From an uncultured Verrucomicrobiae bacterium (GTDB taxonomy: Bacteria > Verrucomicrobiota > Verrucomicrobiia > Chthoniobacterales > Chthoniobacteraceae): 64,000 nt of DNA. Made by a program: the position numbers and the translations under genes. The notes beneath the pieces were generated by a model. The model ran no database searches. It saw only the letters and a list, made by a program, of their open reading frames with translations, and was not told the origin of the DNA. This document shows, one piece after another, positions 18,428 to 54,131 of the stretch. The stretch lies in the NCBI GenBank assembly GCA_963769025.1, contig CAVYKI010000006.1, positions 608,001 through 672,000 of the forward strand, written 5' to 3'. The stretch's first letter is position 1, and each line of letters opens with the position of its first letter.

Positions 18428-18500
18428 GCGGGCGTAGCTCAGTTGGTAGAGCATCTCGTTGCCAACGAGAATGTCGAGAGTTCGAATCTCTTCGCCCGCT
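18428..18500 (+). tRNA. tRNA-Gly(GCC), CCA not encoded
   Basis: Acceptor stem GCGGGCG/CGCCCGC; D arm AGCTCAGTTGGTAGAGC; anticodon arm TCTCG-TTGCCAA-CGAGA; T loop GTTCGAAT. Confidence 0.95.
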
Positions 18501-31924: not shown

Positions 31925-33380
31925 ACCCGCGATCACTCAGGCAGAGCGCTCCGACTTCGGGGCTGCAAGATCGGCAACTGCCAGCGCTTATGAGTGGCCG
32001 CAGTTTGGGCGGAGGTTGGATGAGGAAAGTTTCATCGGACGAATACATCCAAAATCGGGACATTCTGCGTTCGGAGGTTGCTATGAAAAAGTCAACGCAA
32101 TCCACCAATCCCGAACCCTCTCACGACGAAATTTCCGCACGCGCGCAGCAGATTTACGAAGAACAGGGCTGCCCATGCGGGAAAGCTGAGGAGCACTGGC
32201 GCGAAGCCGAGTGCCAATTGCGGGAGGCGAAGGCCAGTGACGCAGAGATGGGTGTTGTAGGTGCCCCGGCGCCGACAAAACCCGTGGCGGGCGCTTAACA
32301 GACCGGCCAGTTCGAAAACTTCTGCCAGCAACTCTCCGAGCAGAAGCCCGGAGTCTGCTTCTGGTCCCGCCAAAGCTGCTCAGCCAACACAGGCCGCGGC
32401 GCGGTGCGCCTCGGAATCTGTTGAAATGAGCCAACGCCAATTCTTCCGCCTATTTGGCCGCGAGCTGCGAATTCGTTGTGGATGAAATCACTTCCATCGA
32501 TATTTCGGGACGCCTTCGCCTCGTGGATGGCGCACAAGGGTCCCAAAATGGGCGCGGCTCTGGCGTATTACACGGCGTTCTCGCTGGCACCTCTGCTCGT
32601 GCTTCTTGCGGGCATTTTAGGATTGGTGATTGATAATGATACGGCACGGACAGCGCTTGTGGGTCAGATTCACGACCTCATGGGCGACGAGGGCGGTGCA
32701 ATGGTCGAAGCGATCCTCCAACGCTCAGCACCGCACGAAAAGGGCGTATTGGCGACAATCATTGGCTCAGTGGTCTTGCTGTTAGGGGCGTCCGGCGTAT
32801 TTGTTGAACTGCACGACTCGCTGAACACCATCTGGGAAACCCCGCCGCGCTCCCGGCCATGGGTTGCATTCATCTGCGAGCGGCTGCTGTCGTTCGCGAT
32901 GGTGTTCGCCCTTGGCTTCCTCGTGCTGGTGTCGCTCGTCGCGTCGGCGATCCTCGCAGCGGTAGGTTCCTACGTGAAAGGCTGGGCACCTGGATTCGAG
33001 GTGCTCTTGGAAGCCGCCAACTCGCTGGTGTCGTTCGTGGTGGTCACGATGCTGTTCGGGGGACTGTTTCGGTTCCTGCCGGATGTGAAGGTCGCATGGC
33101 GCAATGTCTGGGCGGGAGCGGTCATCACGGCGGCGCTCTTCATTCTCGGAAAATTCCTCATTGGGTTCTACATCGGACGAAGCAGTTTCGCATCGGCGTA
33201 CGGTGCCGCAGGATCCCTTGTGATCGTCCTGGTGTGGGTTTTCTATTCAGCGCAGATTTTCTTTTTCGGCGCGGAATTCACCCGGGCATTCGCACGCACG
33301 AACGGAGGCGTTCGAACGGCTCGGCATTCTGACCGCACGACATCCCTCGCTGCGATGCCTGCAGCACCGGAGGGCAACTT
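31867..33380 (+). repeat. copy 1 of a ~1514-bp direct duplication
   Basis: Matches 42822-44335 at offset 10955; only two substitutions seen by eye. Confidence 0.95.
32083..32298 (+). CDS. DUF2934-like small protein
   Basis: ISARAQQIYEEQGCP.G...HWREAE. Confidence 0.8.
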   Translation: MKKSTQSTNPEPSHDEISARAQQIYEEQGCPCGKAEEHWREAECQLREAKASDAEMGVVGAPAPTKPVAGA

Positions 33381-42821: not shown

Positions 42822-44335
42822 CAAAAAAGGCGGTCGCAAGGGTGGGCGCTCGGGAAGCAAGCGGAAGACCAAAGCTTGAACCCGCGATCACTCAGGCAGA
42901 GCGCTCCGACTTCGGGGCTGCAAAATCGGCAACTGCCAGCGCTTATGAGTGGCCGCAGTTTGGGCGGAGGTTGGATGAGGAAAGTTTCATCGGACGAATA
43001 CATCCAAAATCGGGACATTCTGCGTTCGGAGGTTGCTATGAAAAAGTCAACGCAATCCACCAATCCCGAACCCTCTCACGACGAAATTTCCGCACGCGCG
43101 CAGCAGATTTACGAAGAACAGGGCTGCCCATGCGGGAAAGCTGAGGAGCACTGGCGCGAAGCCGAGTGCCAATTGCGGGAGGCGAAGGCCAGTGACGCAG
43201 AGATGGGTGTTGTAGGTGCCCCGGCGCCGACAAAACCCGTGGCGGGCGCTTAACAGACCGGCCAGTTCGAAAACTTCTGCCAGCAACTCTCCGAGCAGAA
43301 GCCCGGAGTCTGCTTCTGGTCCCGCCAAAGCTGCTCAGCCAACACAGGCCGCGGCGCGGTGCGCCTCGGAATCTGTTGAAATGAGCCAACGCCAATTCTT
43401 CCGCCTATTTGGCCGCGAGCTGCGAATTCGTTGTGGATGAAATCACTTCCATCGATATTTCGGGACGCCTTCGCCTCGTGGATGGCGCACAAGGGTCCCA
43501 AAATGGGCGCGGCTCTGGCGTATTACACGGCGTTCTCGCTGGCACCTCTGCTCGTGCTTCTTGCGGGCATTTTAGGATTGGTGATTGATAATGATACGGC
43601 ACGGACAGCGCTTGTGGGTCAGATTCACGACCTCATGGGCGACGAGGGCGGTGCAATGGTCGAAGCGATCCTCCAACGCTCAGCACCGCACGAAAAGGGC
43701 GTATTGGCGACAATCATTGGCTCAGTGGTCTTGCTGTTAGGGGCGTCCGGCGTATTTGTTGAACTGCACGACTCGCTGAACACCATCTGGGAAACCCCGC
43801 CGCGCTCCCGGCCATGGGTTGCATTCATCTGCGAGCGGCTGCTGTCGTTCGCGATGGTGTTCGCCCTTGGCTTCCTCGTGCTGGTGTCGCTCGTCGCGTC
43901 GGCGATCCTCGCAGCGGTAGGTTCCTACGTGAAAGGCTGGGCACCTGGATTCGAGGTGCTCTTGGAAGCCGCCAACTCGCTGGTGTCGTTCGTGGTGGTC
44001 ACGTTGCTGTTCGGGGGACTGTTTCGGTTCCTGCCGGATGTGAAGGTCGCATGGCGCAATGTCTGGGCGGGAGCGGTCATCACGGCGGCGCTCTTCATTC
44101 TCGGAAAATTCCTCATTGGGTTCTACATCGGACGAAGCAGTTTCGCATCGGCGTACGGTGCCGCAGGATCCCTTGTGATCGTCCTGGTGTGGGTTTTCTA
44201 TTCAGCGCAGATTTTCTTTTTCGGCGCGGAATTCACCCGGGCATTCGCACGCACGAACGGAGGCGTTCGAACGGCTCGGCATTCTGACCGCACGACATCC
44301 CTCGCTGCGATGCCTGCAGCACCGGAGGGCAACTT
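42822..44335 (+). repeat. copy 2 of the ~1514-bp direct duplication
   Basis: Matches 31867-33380; ends exactly at the IS left end. Confidence 0.95.
43038..43253 (+). CDS. DUF2934-like small protein (duplicate)
   Basis: Same protein as 32083-32298. Confidence 0.8.
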   Translation: MKKSTQSTNPEPSHDEISARAQQIYEEQGCPCGKAEEHWREAECQLREAKASDAEMGVVGAPAPTKPVAGA

Positions 44336-44387: not shown

Positions 44388-45528
44388 ACGGCGGAAATTT
44401 GCGGGCGGGGCTCGGCGCAGACGGAGTGGGAACAGCCGGACGGGTGGTGAAAAGCCAAGGTCATCGTCCCGGTGGGGGCGCTCCGGGGTGTGCGGCGGGT
44501 GGTTTTCATGCGGTGCACAGGGTCACGAGACGCTTGAGGTTCCAGGCCACGCTCTTGAGCTGGAGTTCGAGGGTGCCTTTGCGCAGGCCGGTGTAGCGCA
44601 TCCGCCGCCAGCCGAGTACGCGCTTCCAGTGGCCGAAGATTTTCTCGATGCCGGCGCGCGTGGCAGCCAGCCAGCCGTTGACCTCCTGCTGCTCGTCGGT
44701 GAGCGGGCGGTTGCGGCGCGCGGGCTCCATCAGCCCGCTGTGGATGCCTCGGGCGGCCAGCCATGCCTCGTGCTCGGCGCTGTAGTAGGCTTTGTCGGCG
44801 ATGGCCATCTCGGTGTCCGCCGGGCACACGTCCTTGAATTTTCGGCTGTCATGCACATTAGCTGCCGTCAGTTCCGCGGTGCGGATGAGCGTGTGCTCCT
44901 CGTCGGCGGCGACGTGTGCCTTGAACCCGTAATAGGCCCGGCCTCCCTTGGTCGCGTAGCCGGCCTCGGGGTCGCCCTGCGTGCCGTCGGCGCGCTCGGC
45001 ATGGGTGGGCTTGCGCCGCGCACTCTCGACGATGGTCGCATCCACGAGCGTGACGCTTTTGACCATCAGCCCGCGCGCTTCGAGTTGGGCATTCACCAGT
45101 CCGAGCAGCCGCGTGTGCAGCCCCCTCGCCACCAGCCGTGCGCGATACCGAACAAGCGCCGTCTCGTCCGGCACGCGATCCGCCAGGCCCAGCCCGCAGA
45201 ACTCCCGGAAGCTGCGCCGGTCGGCCACCTGCGCCTCGCACTCCGGGTCGCTCAAGTCATAGAAGTGCTGCAGCAGCGTCATCTTGAACATCACCAGCGG
45301 GTCGTGCGGGTCGCGCCCGCGCGTGGCCGTGTATGCCTCACGCAGCGCTGCCTCGATCGGCGTGAAGTCCACCACACTCTCCAGCTTGCCGAGGAATCTC
45401 GCCGTGCGGTTGCCCCGGTTCTCACGGTTGGCCATCTCATCCACGAAGTTCATCTGACGTTCGCTTTTGCTCATGCGTTCTTCGATCCCTCTCCCTCACA
45501 TGCCTTGGGGGATTTTCGCAGAGGTCTC
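44336..45528 (-). mobile_element. IS5-family insertion sequence (IS1106-like ends)
   Basis: Perfect 16-bp terminal inverted repeats GAGACCTCTGCGAAAA (44336-44351 and 45513-45528) around one transposase gene. Confidence 0.93.
44506..45474 (-). CDS. IS5-family DDE transposase
   Basis: LSDP..E...DRRSFR.FCGL..VPDET, VDAT, GFKAH, ADKAY, RAGIEKIFG..KR. Confidence 0.95.
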   Translation of the reverse strand: MSKSERQMNFVDEMANRENRGNRTARFLGKLESVVDFTPIEAALREAYTATRGRDPHDPLVMFKMTLLQHFYDLSDPECEAQVADRRSFREFCGLGLADRVPDETALVRYRARLVARGLHTRLLGLVNAQLEARGLMVKSVTLVDATIVESARRKPTHAERADGTQGDPEAGYATKGGRAYYGFKAHVAADEEHTLIRTAELTAANVHDSRKFKDVCPADTEMAIADKAYYSAEHEAWLAARGIHSGLMEPARRNRPLTDEQQEVNGWLAATRAGIEKIFGHWKRVLGWRRMRYTGLRKGTLELQLKSVAWNLKRLVTLCTA

Positions 45529-45764
45529 AGAATGTTTGCAAATATAGGGTTTTGCGCGGCATGACGCAGGAGGAGCTCGCGGCGAAGGCGGAAATGGACC
45601 GGAGCTACCTCGCGCGGATCGAGTCCGGCAATGCGAAGGCGTCGGTGGACCTCATCGAGCGCCTCGCGATGGGGCTGGAGGTCGCCCCGGAGAAATTGCT
45701 TCACGGCTATGCCCGGAGCGCCGGGGCCTTGCGGTCGCGGAATGGGAGCCATCAGCCGGCGTGA
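45529..45764 (+). pseudogene. XRE-family HTH regulator, 5' end probably cut by the IS
   Basis: Frame reads (Q)NVCKYRVLRGMTQEELAAKAEMDRSYLARIESG..SVDLIERLAMGLEV from the IS end onward. Confidence 0.75.
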
Positions 45765-45859
45765 TCCCCGGGCCATGCGTTTCATAGTGTCAGCCAATGG
45801 GAACGGGACGGGCGGGAACGGGGGGATTCCTGCGCAGGACACGCTGCTCCCCGGTCTCA

Positions 45860-46392
45860 TTAGGCAATCATTCCTGAGGGATGGGAGGGTCCGGGTCGCG
45901 GCCGGACAATCGTTCCCGGCAGACAACTCGCTCCGGGAGGCGGGCAGACAATCGTTTTCAAGGGACAACCCGCTCCGGCATCCCGAAACACAATCGTTTT
46001 CGGGGGACGACCGGCTCCGGCGGGTGAAAACACAATCGTTCCTGAGAGTCACCCGGCTCCGGTCTCTCAGGAATGATTGTGTTTTGGCACCCGCCGCTCT
46101 CAGTCCCGTCAAAACGCAATCAGTCCTGAGAGTCCCCACCCTGCCGGGTGAGAAAAGACAATCGTTATTGAGAGTCCCGAGCCGGTTGTCTGCCAATTTT
46201 GATTGTCGGGCGAGGCTCCGGAGCGAGGTGTCTGCCAATCCGGATTGTTTCCTGAGGTCCCGGAGCGGGGTGCCCCCCGAAAACGATTGTGTCCTGACGT
46301 TCCCGGGTCTCCTGCCGGTCAAAAATGATTGTTTTGCGGCGTTCCCAAGCGGGTCGCCGGTCGGGACGGATTGGTTTCCCGCCTCCCGGAGC
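45860..46392. repeat. 42-bp-period array of 13 degenerate units with orientation-switching CAATC/GATTG core
   Basis: Cores at 45865, 45907, 45949, 45991, 46033, 46075, 46117, 46159, 46201, 46243, 46285, 46327 and 46369. Confidence 0.92.
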
Positions 46393-46526
46393 CTTCCGTC
46401 CCCCGGGAAGCTTTGCGGATCGGGAGGGTCCAGTCTCAAGACGGCCAGGACCGAAAGCGGATGCGGCGAACGGGACTGTGGCATCGGCGCGCAGGCGCGT
46501 GGCGCAGTGAAGCGTGGCGGAGCCTT

Positions 46527-46659
46527 TGGACTGCGGCGGCTTGACGCCGCTTTCCGTTTCGAGGCTTGCCGAGAAGCCGGTGGTGCGGGGCTTCCCGATG
46601 GCCTCCCACGCTCGCCAAGGCTCGCCATACCCAAAGCGGCGTCAAGCCGCCGCACTCCA
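46527..46659. repeat. REP/MITE-like palindromic element
   Basis: tggactgcggcggcttgacgccgcttt ... aaagcggcgtcaagccgccgcactcca. Confidence 0.85.
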
Positions 46660-46702
46660 TGGGCTCCGCCCATCCTGCCGCGTGCCCGTTTTCCACTCCG
46701 TC

Positions 46703-47731
46703 ATGAGCCGCTGGGATGATCCGTCCACGACGTGGGACTCCTTTTTCTGGGATGCGCCGGATGCCCCGGTGCCGCCCCCGACCAAACACAGGAAAACAAA
46801 CCGACGAACCATGAGCAGCAACCCCACCCCGGACAACAACGACATCCTCCGCGCCCTGGCCGATCGCATCGCGGACGGGTGCAATACCCATGAAACGGCC
46901 ATCGGCATCAAGCAGAACACGGAGGCGGCCATCCGCGCGGCGCTCGCGGTCCTCGATGCGGCGCAGTACCAGCTCGGCCAGAAGCGGGCCGCGGTGGATG
47001 CCGGCTACGGAGCCATGCAGGCGGCGGATGTGGCCGGACAGACGACAGTCACGAACTGCAAGCTGCGCCTCCGGCAGAAGCTCGGCGAACGCTGGAGCGC
47101 GGCATGGGAGCCGACCGGCTTCCCGCACCAGTCCACCGCCGTGCCCGGCACGCAGGACGAGCGGTTCACGCTGCTCAAGAAGCTGAACACCTACTTCACC
47201 AATGTGCCTGCGAACGAAAGCGCCGACATGGGAGCGACCGCCGCGCTGTGCCTGGCGGCGTGGGACGCCCTCTCGAATGCCCGGCAGTCGGTGGCGGACG
47301 CCGAGGCCGCTGAGACCGGCGCCGCGAGCGCCCATGCCGCCGCCGCGGAAGCCCTTCGGAAGCGGGTGCGCGGGCTCATCAATGAGCTGGGCGGCCTGAT
47401 CGAGGACGACGACCCGCGCTACGAGGCGTTCGGCCTGAACATCCCGGCAAACCCGAGCGCGCCGGAGCCGGTGTCCGGCGTCACGCTGGCGCCGCTGGGC
47501 AACGGGCGCTTCTCGGCGAGCTGGCCCTACGCGACGCGGGCGGTGCGGTTCCGCGTGGAGACATTAGTCATGGGCACGGATACGGAATGGCAGAACAAGG
47601 GGAGCTTCCGGGACCTGGAGGCGATCCTGAAGAACTTCGCCGCGGGGCAGACCGTGAAGGTGCGGATCGTCGCCGGAAACGACGGCGGCGACGCCGCGCC
47701 GAGCCCGGAGGGGAGCGTCGTCGTCGCGTAA
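46703..47731 (+). CDS. hypothetical protein: WD-rich leader, Ala-rich helical region, C-terminal FN3-like domain (alternative start 46811)
   Basis: MSRWDDPSTTWDSFFWDAP; C-terminus PEPVSGVTL..SASW..FRV..VRIVAGNDGGDAAPS. Confidence 0.75.
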   Translation: MSRWDDPSTTWDSFFWDAPDAPVPPPTKHRKTNRRTMSSNPTPDNNDILRALADRIADGCNTHETAIGIKQNTEAAIRAALAVLDAAQYQLGQKRAAVDAGYGAMQAADVAGQTTVTNCKLRLRQKLGERWSAAWEPTGFPHQSTAVPGTQDERFTLLKKLNTYFTNVPANESADMGATAALCLAAWDALSNARQSVADAEAAETGAASAHAAAAEALRKRVRGLINELGGLIEDDDPRYEAFGLNIPANPSAPEPVSGVTLAPLGNGRFSASWPYATRAVRFRVETLVMGTDTEWQNKGSFRDLEAILKNFAAGQTVKVRIVAGNDGGDAAPSPEGSVVVA

Positions 47732-47919: not shown

Positions 47920-48519
47920 ATGTTCGACCCTTCCCTCCCCGCCGATGCCACCAAGGCCACCGCCGCAGAGATGCGCGCGCAACTCACCGGGCTGAAGGCG
48001 GAAATCGACGCCATCCCGGGCATCACCTCGGCGGTGGTGGATTCGGTGACGACGACCGGTCCCGGCGAGCCGGCGACGGTGAGCGTGTCCGTGATCGGGA
48101 CGGTGTTGCATATTAGCCTTGCGCTGCCGCGCGGGGCGGATGGCGTCCCCGGCATGCAGGGCGAACAGGGGTTGCAAGGTCCGCCATTTGCCAGTGCGGT
48201 CATCGACAGCGTCGGCACGCTGAATCCCGGGGAGAATGCGACGGTGTCGGTGTCCTTCGACGGGAGCACGGTGCATTTCAGCTTTGGCATCCCGCGCGGG
48301 GCGCAGGGGGAGCAGGGCATCCAGGGCGAGTCGGGCCAGGTGACGACCGAGGCGCTCAACGGGGCGATTTCCTCTGCTCTCGCGGGCACCTCGAACAACA
48401 CGAACGGGGTCGCCGCCATGGACACGCCTTTCACCAACGACCCGCCGACCCTGGCCGACCTGGAGCTGATGCGGGCGAACTACAACCTGCTGGTCGCGGC
48501 GCTGCGCCGGCAGGTGTAG
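47920..48519 (+). CDS. collagen-like / fibre-like repeat protein
   Basis: Two ~35-aa beta-rich repeats (AVVDSV..PGEPATVSVS..HISLALPRG and AVIDSV..PGENATVSVS..HFSFGIPRG), each followed by G-X-Y triplets. Confidence 0.75.
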   Translation: MFDPSLPADATKATAAEMRAQLTGLKAEIDAIPGITSAVVDSVTTTGPGEPATVSVSVIGTVLHISLALPRGADGVPGMQGEQGLQGPPFASAVIDSVGTLNPGENATVSVSFDGSTVHFSFGIPRGAQGEQGIQGESGQVTTEALNGAISSALAGTSNNTNGVAAMDTPFTNDPPTLADLELMRANYNLLVAALRRQV

Positions 48520-48870
48520 CCCCTGGACTGCGGCAGCTCGCTGCCGCTTTCGGCTTCGAGGCTTGCCGAGAAGGGGGTGGGGCGTGTGACCGGATGCCAC
48601 CCCGCGCTCGCCAAGGCTCGCCGGCCACAAAGCGGAGGCGAGCCTCCGCAGTCCAGGGCTACGCGACACCTTTGAAGTTCGGGTCGTCGATTCCCTTCAG
48701 CTCGCTGCCGCTTTCGGCTTCGAGGCTTGCCGAGAAGGGGGTGGAGCGTGACCTTCGGCACGCTTCGCAGGGCAAGTCTTGCAAACGGAAACCCGGCCCG
48801 GACACCGCACCACGCTCGCCAAGGCTCGCCGGCCACAAAGCGGAGGCGAGCCTCCGCAGTCCAGGGCTAC
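48516..48870. repeat. two tandem REP/MITE-like elements separated by a duplicated gene end
   Basis: gtagcccctggactgcgg ... ccgcagtccagggctac; internal blocks shared with 46527-46659. Confidence 0.8.
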
Positions 48871-50264: not shown

Positions 50265-52134
50265 GGAACGATTGCAGTGACCGACACCTCGGCGGGTTTG
50301 CGAAACTGGAACGGCCGGCTGCGCGCGATTTCGAGCACGAGGCGCTGCGTCCGGTATCCGTCCTTCGCGACGGCGCGCGCGATTTGCCGGATGGTCAGCC
50401 AGTCGGTCTGCTCGACGCCGCGGCCGAGCGCGTAGCTGAACATGCGCTCGGTGACGTTGCGCGTGAACTCATCCTTGCGATCGAGCAGCAGGCGCTTGAG
50501 TTCCGCCGGGCCGGTGAACTTGCTGCCATCGGGCAGCTCGCCGGAGGAGTCCACGGCGACATTCGCGACCGTCGTCCTCCAGGCGCCGATGGGATCGAAA
50601 TTTTCCAGCCCGAAGCCGAGCTGATCCATCGTCTTGTGGCATGCGGCGCACTCGGCCCTGCTGCGGTGCACCTCGAGTTGCTGGCGCAAGGTGAGGCCGT
50701 TGCGCGCCTTGTCGGATGTCGGCAGCGCCTTGATCATCGGCGGAGGCGGAGGCGGAGGAGTGCCGAGGATTTCCTCCATCAGCCACTTTCCGCGCAGCAC
50801 CGGACTGCTCCGGCGCGGGTAGCTCGTGAGCGTGAGCACGCCGGCCATCGTGAGCACGCCGCCGCGATTCCGATCCGTGACCGGCACCCGCTGGAAGCCT
50901 TCGCCCTCCACCTCGCCGAAGCCGTAGAATTTCGCGAGCTCCGCATTCGCGTAGGTGTAGTCGGCGTCGATGCACTCGGTGAGCGGGCGGTTCTCGCGCA
51001 GCAGCGCGTGGAAAAATGCGACCGGCTCGCCGGCCATCGCGTCGCGCAGCGCGGGAGTGAAGCCGGGGAACCTGTCCTGTCGCCGGCCGGACGCTCGTCT
51101 GCAGTTCCCTCGTCCGCAGCCACTGGCTGGCGAAATTCTCCGCAAAGGTGCGCGCCTTCGGGTCCGCGAGCATCCGGCCCACCTGCGCCTCGAGGGTCGC
51201 GGCGATCCGAAAGTTTGCCGTCCTGCGCGAGCGCGAACAGCGGCTCGTCGGGCATCGAGGACCACAGGAAGTAGCTCAGGCGCGACGCGAGTTCCCAATC
51301 GCTGATCCGCTGCGGCTGGATGCCCGGGCGATCCTGCTCGGCGCGGAAAAGGAACGATGGCGAGACCAGGAGCACGCGCACGCATTGCCGCATCGCGTCC
51401 TCCCACGAGGCGCCCTGCTTGCGCGATTCCTCGTGGAGTGCGAGCAGCGGGGCGAGTTCGTCGTCCGCCACCGGACGGCGGAAGGCCCGCGGCGCCAGCC
51501 ATGCGAGATTTTCCCGCGCAGCGGAGTAATCGTCCTTCCCCGCGCCCGGCCGCACGTGAAAGAGGCGCTCGGGCTTCGCCGCCGTGACGATGTCCGTCGC
51601 CGCGGCGAGATATTTCTCCATCAGGATGGGCGGGACGAAGAGCGTCGCGGCGTTGTTGTCGAATCCGCCGCCGCCGCCGGCGTCGGGCGGAAAGCGGTCC
51701 GCGGGATGCGATTCCACGCCGAGCAGGTCGCGCACGGTGTTGTTGTATTCGAGCCGGCTGAGGCGGTGGATGAGCTTGCGGCCGACATCGGACGGCACCA
51801 GGAGCGGGTCAGGATTGTCCAGCGTCGAGGAAAGCCACGCCGTGACCAGCGCGCGTTCCGCAGGCGTCGGCTGCGCCTTTTTGGCCGGCGGCATCGAGGC
51901 GTCGCGGACGGCATTGAGCGTCTTTTCCCAAGTCTTCGGCTCGCTCCAAAACGCGCCCTTCGCCGACAGAGCCTCCAGATTCACGCCACCCTTCGCCGTG
52001 TCGTCATGGCAGCCGAAGCAGTAGTTTTGCAAGACCGGCAAGACATCCTTCCCGAAGTCAGAGGCGACGACTCCCCTCTGTAAGGCGCTCACCCCGAGCG
52101 CCGCCACTGACAGGATGAGGGTTGCTCTCGTCAC
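50261..52134 (-). pseudogene. cytochrome c + PSD-domain (DUF1587/1595/1592/1588/1585-type) protein, frameshifted
   Basis: CFGCH, RLSRLEYNNTVRDL, ELASRLSYFLWSSMPD, SPVLRGKW, CAACH spread over three frames (shifts near 51200 and 51080). Confidence 0.8.
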
Positions 52135-52318
52135 GGGCGGAATCTTTGGGACTCCATTTAAGCTTAAAGTATGCGACCCGCGGAAAAAGGGAAGCGGAAA
52201 CTTTGACCCTCCCGTTCCATCCGGCCAAGGGACAGGCACTTCCGATTATGAATTTTCCATAAGAAAAAATCTGCGTGTCATTTCTGCGACGAACCTGAAC
52301 CGGGCCGACGGCCGCAAC

Positions 52319-54131
52319 CTACCGGTGTAACTCGTTGAAAACCCGTCCGAGCGCTCCCGTGGTCCAGATGAGCGGATAGAGCCGTTCGTGATACCACAGA
52401 CGCGCGAAGTAAAAGCCGATCGGCGCCGGTTCGCGCCATTCGCCGGATTCGACACGCTCGATGAGCCAGCGCACGCCCCGTTCGATGACTTCCCGGTGCG
52501 ACGTCCCGGCCAGCGCCTCCACCGCGAGCGCCGTCTCCTCGACGCTCGAAGGCACGCCGCGCACGCCGCCCCAGCCGCCGTCGTCGTTCTGCGCCGCCGC
52601 AAGCCAGGCGGCCCCGCGCGCCGCGGGAGCCATCGCCGGCATCATGCCCGACTCCGCGAGTTCCCGGAGCGCGGAGACGACAAGCGCCGTTCCGTAGAGC
52701 GGATTCTCGTCGCCGGGGGCATGCTCATTCCCGAACCACAGCGGCACCCACGCGCCATCGTCGCGCTGCGTACGGATGAGATATGCAAGGCCGCGGTTCA
52801 TCCCGCGCACAAGCGCGGGACGCGCACGCGGATCGACTTCGGTTCGCCATGCATTCCACGCGCGAAGCACATGCGCCGTGAGATCCTGCGAACTCCGATC
52901 AAACGGCAGCGCGCCCCAGCCGCGGCAGAATGTCGGGATGCCGCCGTCGCGATTTTGCAGCCCCATCAGCCATCGCACGCCCGCGAGCCCCGCGGCGTGA
53001 GTGGCCGGATCGAGTGGCCCGAGCCTTCGCAATGCGATCAACGCGCCCGGCGTGTCGTCCGCGTCCGGAACGCCGCCGGGCAGATCCGTCCACGCCCAGC
53101 CGCCGGGCGCCGCGTGGGTGTAAGGATGCTCCACGCGCCACTGCTGGCCCAGCAGCCAACCGCGAAGCACGGCGCACTGTTCCGATGCGAGCACATCGGC
53201 CTGATGCGCCAGCGCCTTGATCGCGAGCGTCGTGGTCCACGTCGCGAGATTGGTATCGATCGGCCAGCTCCCGTCGGCGCGCACCGACGCGACCAGAAAC
53301 TCCGCACCTTTTTTCGCGACGATGTGCGAAGCATGCCCCATCGAGGCGAGGCTCATCGTGACGAATGACGTGAGCGGTGTTGCTTCGAGAAATCCCCCGT
53401 TCGGCGGCTGCAACGTCTCAAGCACACGCAGCGTCTTCTTTCGCGCCATCGTCGCGCAGCGCGCCGGTGAGCGGATTCCTCGTCGGCGCGTGATGGTGGA
53501 TCGCCTGCCCGATCGCGATGAGCGCGGGCAATGCGTAGCTGACCACCGGCAGCCGGAGCGCGCCCCAGAAACGATGCGACATCGCGGCGAGCTCGAACGG
53601 CAGCTTCGGCACGAGGCGCCAGCCGTCCGGACCGAGGCGTCCGGAGAGCGCGAGCGTCATCAGGATCGGGACGGAAAAGGTGCGGTCCTTTCCGTAGCGC
53701 CGCGCGATGACTTCCGGCAGGAGAGCGGTGCGCCAGCCATCCTGCGAGGCCGGAGCCGGGGACTCGTCGGCTCCACATTGTCGCCGAATCCACGCCTCGG
53801 CGTTCTCAACGACCTTGGGGAAATCCGAGTCGGCGTCCGCGGCGCCGAGCGCGGCCCAGCAGAGTGCGGTGGTGGAGATGTTCGACTTGCTGCGCGTCGT
53901 GTCGCCCCAGCCGCCGTCGGCGTTCACATTCTGCGCGAGCCACGCCAGCCCGCGGCGGATCAATTCCGCATGCCGCGCGCGATCCGCCGTCGCCAGCGCC
54001 GTCACGGCGGTCGCGGTCGAGAGCGCGCTCGCAGAGAGTTCGCCGGTCCAGTGCCCGGCGGGATTCATCTCCGCGAGCAAGGCGGAGGTCGCACGCTGCA
54101 ACGCGGCGGCGAGCCGATCCCGGTCGGTCAT
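52319..54131 (-). pseudogene. squalene-hopene cyclase-like protein, frameshifted near 53450
   Basis: GHWTGELS, NADGGWG, PDADDT (DxDD), QNRDGG, QNDDGGWG repeats. Confidence 0.8.

Follow-up and report, generated by a model that had tools for sequence, protein, structure and literature searches.

The self-complementarity of the repeat array studied here is a geometric by-product of the layout of its units, and the array is a member of a gene-linked family of 42-bp arrays that is apparently undescribed so far. Full-text literature searches, judged from titles and opening lines of abstracts, turned up nothing on such arrays. The array occupies positions 45847-46391 of the window, i.e., the whole stretch of 64,000 nucleotides that was analyzed, and a position-weight map resolved it into thirteen 42-bp units with the orientation FFFFF-R-FF-RRRRR (F, forward; R, reversed). 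We propose, with moderate confidence, that it is a dsDNA-level array of helically phased sites, which would act as the DNA-level control array of the module that contains the downstream gene ORF342, through putative protein binding and regulation. The features of the locus are the following.

44506-45474, minus strand: IS transposase (DDE_Tnp_1, DUF772; Pfam), beside the module
45552-45764, plus strand: XRE-type HTH gene that reads toward the array (Pfam HTH_3, 1.6e-11; 71% nucleotide identity to the HTH of the sibling locus in genome G026)
45847-46391, no strand: whole array, 13 units of 42 bp each; core CAATC at unit positions 19-23, CTCCGG-like element at positions 1-6, GC 0.60
45847-46056, plus strand: units 1-5, forward (position-weight map; start-to-start spacing 42)
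46056-46097, minus strand: unit 6, the lone reversed unit, kept in 5/5 homologous arrays; pairs with units 5 and 7 as inverted repeats of 22 and 26 bp
46099-46182, plus strand: units 7-8, forward (position-weight map)
46182-46391, minus strand: units 9-13, reversed, decaying toward the edge (position-weight unit scores down to 26.8)
46516-46670, no strand: palindromic dispersed element of 155 bp between array and gene (38-nt arms, 92% complementary; 41 BLAST rows in the genome)
46703-47731, plus strand: ORF342, 342 aa; N-terminus disordered and basic, long hairpins of helices, FN3 domain at the C-terminus (AlphaFold model)
47920-48519, plus strand: small collagen-like ORF, the third gene of the module (weak Pfam Collagen match)

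Six of the 13 units are flipped. Units of the same orientation start 42 bp apart, start offsets of 41 and 43 occur at the orientation flips, and the core centres remain on a 42-bp lattice throughout. The same forward/reverse plan and 42-bp spacing are shared by five homologous arrays: the window array, a second copy on contig C9 of the source genome (G000), those of genomes G014 and G004, and one on a metagenome contig (MG). Over the 69 units of these five arrays the asymmetric core CAATC was nearly invariant, with frequencies of 0.89-0.98, and it was conserved equally in forward and reverse units. Several unit positions beyond the core were semi-conserved, e.g., CTCCGG at positions 1-6; pairwise identity between units was 0.95 in the core vs 0.49 at the other positions. 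The source is a metagenome-assembled genome, in which the repeat copy number is possibly mis-assembled; contigs from four DNA runs gave fragmentary cover over the window array and revealed no joints.

The window array is non-coding. A coding 14-aa repeat was rejected on account of stops in all six frames in three of the five arrays (C9, G004 and MG). Two frames are open across the array in the window and in G014, and the upstream arrays of the gene family are generally not in frame with the ORF342-family gene.

The original prediction had claimed that the array pairs with itself in several mutually exclusive registers, and had read this as a branched, pseudoknotted or switching ssRNA/ssDNA architecture, or as the record of repeated inversion or conversion between units. 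The pairings themselves are real. Positions 46027-46048 pair with 46064-46085 over 22 nt (95% complementary, the sole exception being G46038 opposite T46074), and unit 6 can alternatively pair with unit 7 through the 26-nt arms 46061-46086 and 46110-46135 (88% complementary). Furthermore, 45988-46006 and 46274-46292 are perfect reverse complements over 19 nt, and 45918-45936 is complementary to 46218-46236 at 18 of 19 positions. The symmetry centres at 46056, 46077 and 46140 differ by multiples of 21, as does the midpoint of units 6 and 7 at 46098. These multiple registers and centres arise because 13 homologous 42-bp units run both ways with their cores on the 42-bp lattice, and midpoints between forward and reverse cores on such a lattice are therefore necessarily multiples of 21. 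The complementarity also reaches into the variable spacers, as had been claimed, which is explained by the semi-conserved non-core positions and by the identities between units. In the window, mean unit identity was 23.4/42 for forward-reverse pairs vs 24.2/42 for forward-forward pairs, and in all five arrays the forward-reverse value was at or below the forward-forward value, which argues against a switching fold.

The MFE of the window array appeared to favor such a fold, being -277.1 kcal/mol vs -216.3 +/- 5.75 kcal/mol for dinucleotide shuffles (z -10.6; 0/100 as good). An excess of ~30 kcal/mol was also left over column shuffles, which preserve the composition of each unit position and the orientation pattern: these gave -247.5 +/- 12.4 kcal/mol when all units were pooled (5/228 as good as the window) and -246.6 +/- 8.4 kcal/mol when shuffling was confined to the orientation class (0/227 as good). 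In addition, the inverted-repeat layout of units 5, 6 and 7 is present in all five arrays. The column shuffles indicated that half of the fold excess is shared consensus. When whole units were permuted among the slots, however, the window MFE was no better than the controls (z -0.2; 47/114 as good). The same permutation gave z +0.48 for G014 (60/95 as good), z -1.03 for MG (8/65 as good) and z +2.4 for C9, where the real array was worse than all 94 permutations. Since the column-shuffle excess was gone once whole units were preserved, it reflects unit subtypes and not chosen partners.

Covariation was not detected for the four proposed helices on the alignment of five arrays, a number that gives limited power. 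For helices a, c and d, 77.7% of the cells were paired vs 78.1% in shuffled alignments (334/500 shuffles as high), with a covariation score of 0.117 vs 0.106 (138/500 as high); for helix b, 83.8% of the cells were paired vs 83.4% shuffled. Where the columns of the four helices vary, many cells are unpaired, and the RNAalifold covariation term over the five arrays was +10.0, i.e., a penalty. An Rfam search gave no match in the array region, the sole match in the window being a tRNA at 18428. The original prediction had itself named folding against core-preserving controls and covariation as the checks on a branched, pseudoknotted or switching architecture, and that architecture failed in both. 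Its other reading, a record of inversion or conversion, is compatible with the array as history, the flipped units being real, but not as ongoing flipping. Because the forward/reverse pattern is identical in all five arrays, the flips are old, and it is as old history that this alternative is plausible.

The array is only one case of a recurrent arrangement. An upstream array with a period of 41/42 bp was found at 19 of 21 loci of the ORF342 family. All loci of a first set of 14 carried one, with 3.5-13 copies, 70-320 bp upstream of the gene, as did both of two further full ORF342 copies in G000. A sample of 300 other genomes across the phylum, two of which had distant members, together with one partial copy in G000 gave five more loci; a 41/42-bp repeat lay upstream in three of these, with two other families of the phylum represented; at one distant locus the array lay ~760 bp upstream of the gene. 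Copy number across loci ran from 1.9 to 17. The unit sequences are unrelated between loci, and within most arrays the units are 88-95% alike. Most units consist of a short GGAG-N-CTCC or GCTCCGG-like element and a locus-specific, often palindromic core, and they often hold two elements ~21 bp apart. The equivalent locus of G026 (cas9, XRE HTH, array, ORF342) has an unrelated unit, the period being again 42. Many family members lie on contigs of 1-4 kb. In G000 as a whole, 42 is the commonest tandem period (21 TRF rows with a score of at least 80), followed by 21 bp (15 rows). Examples of such period-42 arrays are C2:337633-337880, C3:868806-869192 and C12:519553-519908; the first of them precedes another fn3-domain gene, and its unit recurs in near-identical form at C2:421895, with an ISL3 transposase after it.

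The genes around the array are also shared. An XRE HTH gene with Pfam support lies directly upstream and co-directional at 11 of the 17 loci with upstream sequence, the other six having no Pfam-supported HTH; all 9 loci of the clade nearest to the window have it. A collagen-like ORF follows the ORF342-family gene in the module. The window locus has the 41/42-bp period, ORF342 with the collagen-like ORF downstream, and the XRE HTH upstream, where the N-terminus of the HTH gene may have been cut by the IS on its left. The ATG of ORF342 (46703) lies 311 bp from the array end. The AlphaFold model of ORF342 has a pLDDT of 85.7, and its structural matches cover the FN3 part only; the whole protein gave no Pfam match, and a search of the ESM Atlas with the helical part gave unnamed clusters only. 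The protein family, which is surface-protein-like, has at least 314 metagenome members, of which the named ones are called 'fibronectin type III domain-containing protein', and homologs are present in many genomes of the genus. For the collagen-like ORF, the Pfam Collagen match is clear in the sibling L152 (1e-10), and PHROG matches to collagen-like tail fibres were also obtained.

Between array and gene the spacers are poorly conserved. A sigma-70 scan of 45400-46900 yielded 0 sites. A sigma-54-type -24/-12 scan of the array-gene spacers, strict in spacing, with GG/GC fixed and at least 9/11 key positions of the consensus, yielded 0 matches in 19, and a sigma-54 enhancer (UAS) array was set aside on this basis. 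The 155-bp palindromic element lies between array and gene at several sibling loci, and occurs again at 48518-48664 of the window. Its genomic copies cluster on C13 and C10, and it forms the end of many metagenome contigs. Another dispersed stretch, of ~100 nt (L109 1307-1407, a metagenome contig), is 89-95% identical to multiple sites in many genomes of the genus, one G028 contig carrying four consecutive copies, and ARAGORN finds no tRNA in it. At two loci, in G014 (L020 10604-14959) and G026:C328 (L125/L150), cas9 (HNH + RuvC) followed by cas1 of a type II CRISPR-Cas system lies directly left of the XRE-array-ORF342 module. A link of the array to cas9 was dropped, since a search of G000 and G004 with the G014 query gave no cas9. 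A CRISPR array as such was rejected because it is the entire 42-bp unit that recurs, in both orientations, and because the 'spacers' of different arrays are homologous.

The homologous CAATC-type arrays allowed us to ask which parts of the unit are retained. The second copy in the source genome (C9:1222526-1223153) is 81% identical to the window array over 416 bp with unrelated flanks; it begins ~170 bp past a tRNA-Gln gene, ahead of mfd. Homologous arrays were found in 2 of 29 other genomes of the genus (G014 and G004) and in none of 121 genomes of other genera of the family, so that 3 of 151 family genomes carry one. A three-unit pattern scan of genome contigs returned 86 loci, of which only the two already-known arrays are homologs; nearly all the others were rejected as unrelated 21/42-bp tandem repeats caught by the pattern itself, the look-alikes L041 and L063 included. 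Elsewhere in the genome the CAATC motif is not above chance: 25 of 32 matches of at least 16 bits fall in the two arrays and 7 elsewhere, permuted matrices giving 3-11 matches. A dispersed regulon or REP-like family was rejected because of this confinement of the motif to two arrays.

The window and G014 arrays have a common right flank and are therefore orthologous. Between them, identity was 78% at unit positions 16-36, 66% at the remaining positions and 63% at the four-fold degenerate sites of the adjacent gene, and no indel was present over 538 aligned columns. Unit positions 20-23 were invariant in 8/8 aligned units of four arrays. Since identity of the core exceeded that of the four-fold sites and the 538 columns were free of indels, the core and the spacing are constrained, with the spacers drifting at about the neutral rate. 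As forward and reverse units hold the core equally well, this constraint is strand-symmetric, which fits recognition of duplex DNA better than recognition of one RNA strand.

Not all of the sequence of these arrays is old. Five reversed units of the C9 copy (G000:C9:1222860-1223069; L022 9860-10069) are nearly identical, this block having expanded recently in tandem whereas the rest of the array is old; a duplication of three units is seen at the left end of the MG array. No ORF342 gene adjoins the CAATC-type arrays of C9, G004:C119 and the metagenome contig, three of the five, so that the array can persist away from the module. The array flanks are not contiguous in any relative, synteny in the genus being short-range (no empty site identified).

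The module is ordered as XRE regulator, array, helical+FN3 protein and collagen-like protein. A period of 42 bp corresponds to four turns, which places all sites on one helix face. Most likely, a sequence-specific DNA-binding protein would occupy these in-phase sites and assemble into a higher-order complex, through which the operon downstream would be controlled. One candidate binder is the XRE protein next to the array. HTH type and array core do not go together, however: the window and G014 have the array in common and HTHs that cannot be aligned, related HTHs occur with different arrays in the window and G026:C328, and L154 and L155 have a common core and different HTH types. More broadly, and only tentatively, these arrays can be pictured as rulers. 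Pairs of helical+FN3 and collagen-like genes across Verrucomicrobiota could be governed by an element conserved only in its four-turn 42-bp period, with a site sequence private to each paralogue and a predicted protein or filament assembling along a single DNA face; in this picture the window copy would be an old member in which constraint on duplex DNA and on spacing can be seen.

The array could instead act as RNA, being transcribed as a leader or ncRNA of the ORF342 operon in which each unit supplies a hairpin and a short constant motif that binds a protein or stabilizes the message. We consider this unlikely, although the gene layout is compatible with it: the left neighbour reads into the array at 4/4 loci where it was identified, and the right neighbour is co-directional at 3 of 4 distinct loci. 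Sibling arrays mostly have palindromic cores, and 8 of 10 folded as RNA hairpins better than shuffles (z -2.7 to -6.4) because these cores are palindromes, which vary in sequence and arm length by locus as a structure-only constraint would allow. However, the siblings L125 (z +1.31) and L160 (z -0.56) folded no better than shuffles, and neither did the same-orientation stretches of the window array (z -1.3 and +0.36). Flipped units would give the complementary RNA motif, yet their core is equally conserved. The lack of covariation and of an Rfam match also speaks against an RNA leader, as does the position of the G004:C119 array between convergent genes. The related class of type III toxin-antitoxin RNA arrays was set aside because the model of the downstream protein consists of long helices and FN3, its fold matches FN3 only, and no ToxN-like endoribonuclease is present.

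A functionless minisatellite (VNTR), turned over by slippage and unequal crossing-over and merely travelling with the gene family, would account for units that are unrelated between loci and 88-95% alike inside most arrays, for the range of copy number, for the decay of edge units, for the recent duplications in C9 and MG, and for the patchy occurrence of CAATC-type arrays. We hold this to be rather improbable, since the 41/42-bp period recurs at 19/21 loci across families of the phylum despite unrelated units, and the old window-type arrays hold their core well above the four-fold sites and their spacing without indels.

A replicon or segregation site (iterons, a sopC-like centromere) or mobile-element ends (MITEs, transposase-binding subterminal repeats) is very improbable. 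Such elements would fit the many phased, oriented sites in two opposed blocks, the presence of CAATC-type copies in four unrelated genomic contexts, including the one that follows a tRNA gene by 170 bp, and the IS beside the window copy. Against this, no Rep, Par or transposase gene is consistently linked to the arrays, which are only two in the genome and gave no match in phage, plasmid or viral collections. An iteron origin was rejected because the neighbours are the XRE HTH, the FN3 protein and the IS, with no plasmid or phage match. MITE or transposon ends were rejected because the genome has only two copies and the edges are fuzzy and decaying, without sharp or shared termini or target duplications. 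A ParB/SopB-type centromere was rejected because ParB, single-copy in three carrier genomes, is encoded in G000 at C9:1146456, which is 76 kb away from the C9 array, the window being part of another contig, and parS-like sites lie elsewhere, on C3 and C5. No canonical parS 16-mer was found in the genome within two mismatches; the parS-like palindromes, with three mismatches, are at C3:1175853 and C3:1176861, 78 kb from dnaA, duplicated on the small contig C5 (20151 and 22088), apart from parB on C9. A replication terminus or fork trap was rejected as well, since the GC-skew peak of C6 lies ~5 kb right of the array with only 36 kb of contig beyond it, and the C9 copy does not coincide with a skew switch. 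Along C6 the cumulative GC skew climbs for 660 kb before declining from ~51000-53000 of the window (C6 ~660 kb), and a clear switch is seen at ~650 kb of C9.

The branched, pseudoknotted or switching ssRNA/ssDNA with alternative pairing registers, the excess of which vanished under whole-unit permutation, is hardly tenable.

Left of the module, the window also contains a direct duplication of 1,036 bp (32345-33380 and 43300-44335; 99.9% identity) that covers a whole BrkB-family gene. It brackets a ~10-kb segment of lower GC with a KaiC-like ATPase, a sensor kinase and a response regulator, and the IS beside the module follows the right copy. Possible explanations are segmental duplication, the boundary of an island or an artefact of assembly.

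With the readings as a large riboswitch-like element or a recombining element set aside, what is left is a genome architecture that recurs in a poorly studied phylum and has apparently not been described, in which a strict 42-bp period is kept before one gene family while the sequence of the repeat is replaced. If the arrays are control sites, they would allow the influence of helical phasing and copy number on expression, and the means by which paralogous modules stay separate, to be studied in a natural system. If they are neutral, they would be a striking case of period-preserving minisatellite turnover in bacteria. In practical terms, the arrays break metagenome assemblies.

Several known systems come close to these arrays. 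The ToxI-like RNA arrays of type III toxin-antitoxin systems consist of ~36-45-nt tandem units directly upstream of a partner gene, with locus-specific sequence. Unit length, position and locus specificity are alike here, but the downstream protein is helical+FN3 and not of an endoribonuclease fold, the window has flipped units, and the copy numbers are much higher. Mycobacterial MIRU-type VNTRs are 40-100-bp intergenic tandem repeats between co-directional genes; the arrays described here share the unit size, the intergenic position between co-directional genes and the variable copy number, and differ in having one exact period at unrelated sequences before one gene family, with a constrained core in old arrays. 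The sopC centromere of the F plasmid has twelve 43-bp direct repeats bound by SopB. In unit length and number it is very close to the window array (13 x 42 bp), and both have one site per unit, whereas the window array has no adjacent ParA/ParB, has units that run both ways, and accompanies a family of structural-protein genes. The iterons and operator arrays of plasmids and phages are direct repeats bound by Rep or a repressor, spaced by about two turns and placed upstream of the controlled gene. Unlike iterons, with their period of ~22, the window array has a period of 42 bp, has neither a Rep-type gene nor an AT-rich unwinding element, is chromosomal and multi-copy, and precedes a helical+FN3 gene; like iterons and operator arrays, it is composed of tandem, phased, specific sites directly upstream of a gene, with a locus-private sequence and occasional inverted units.
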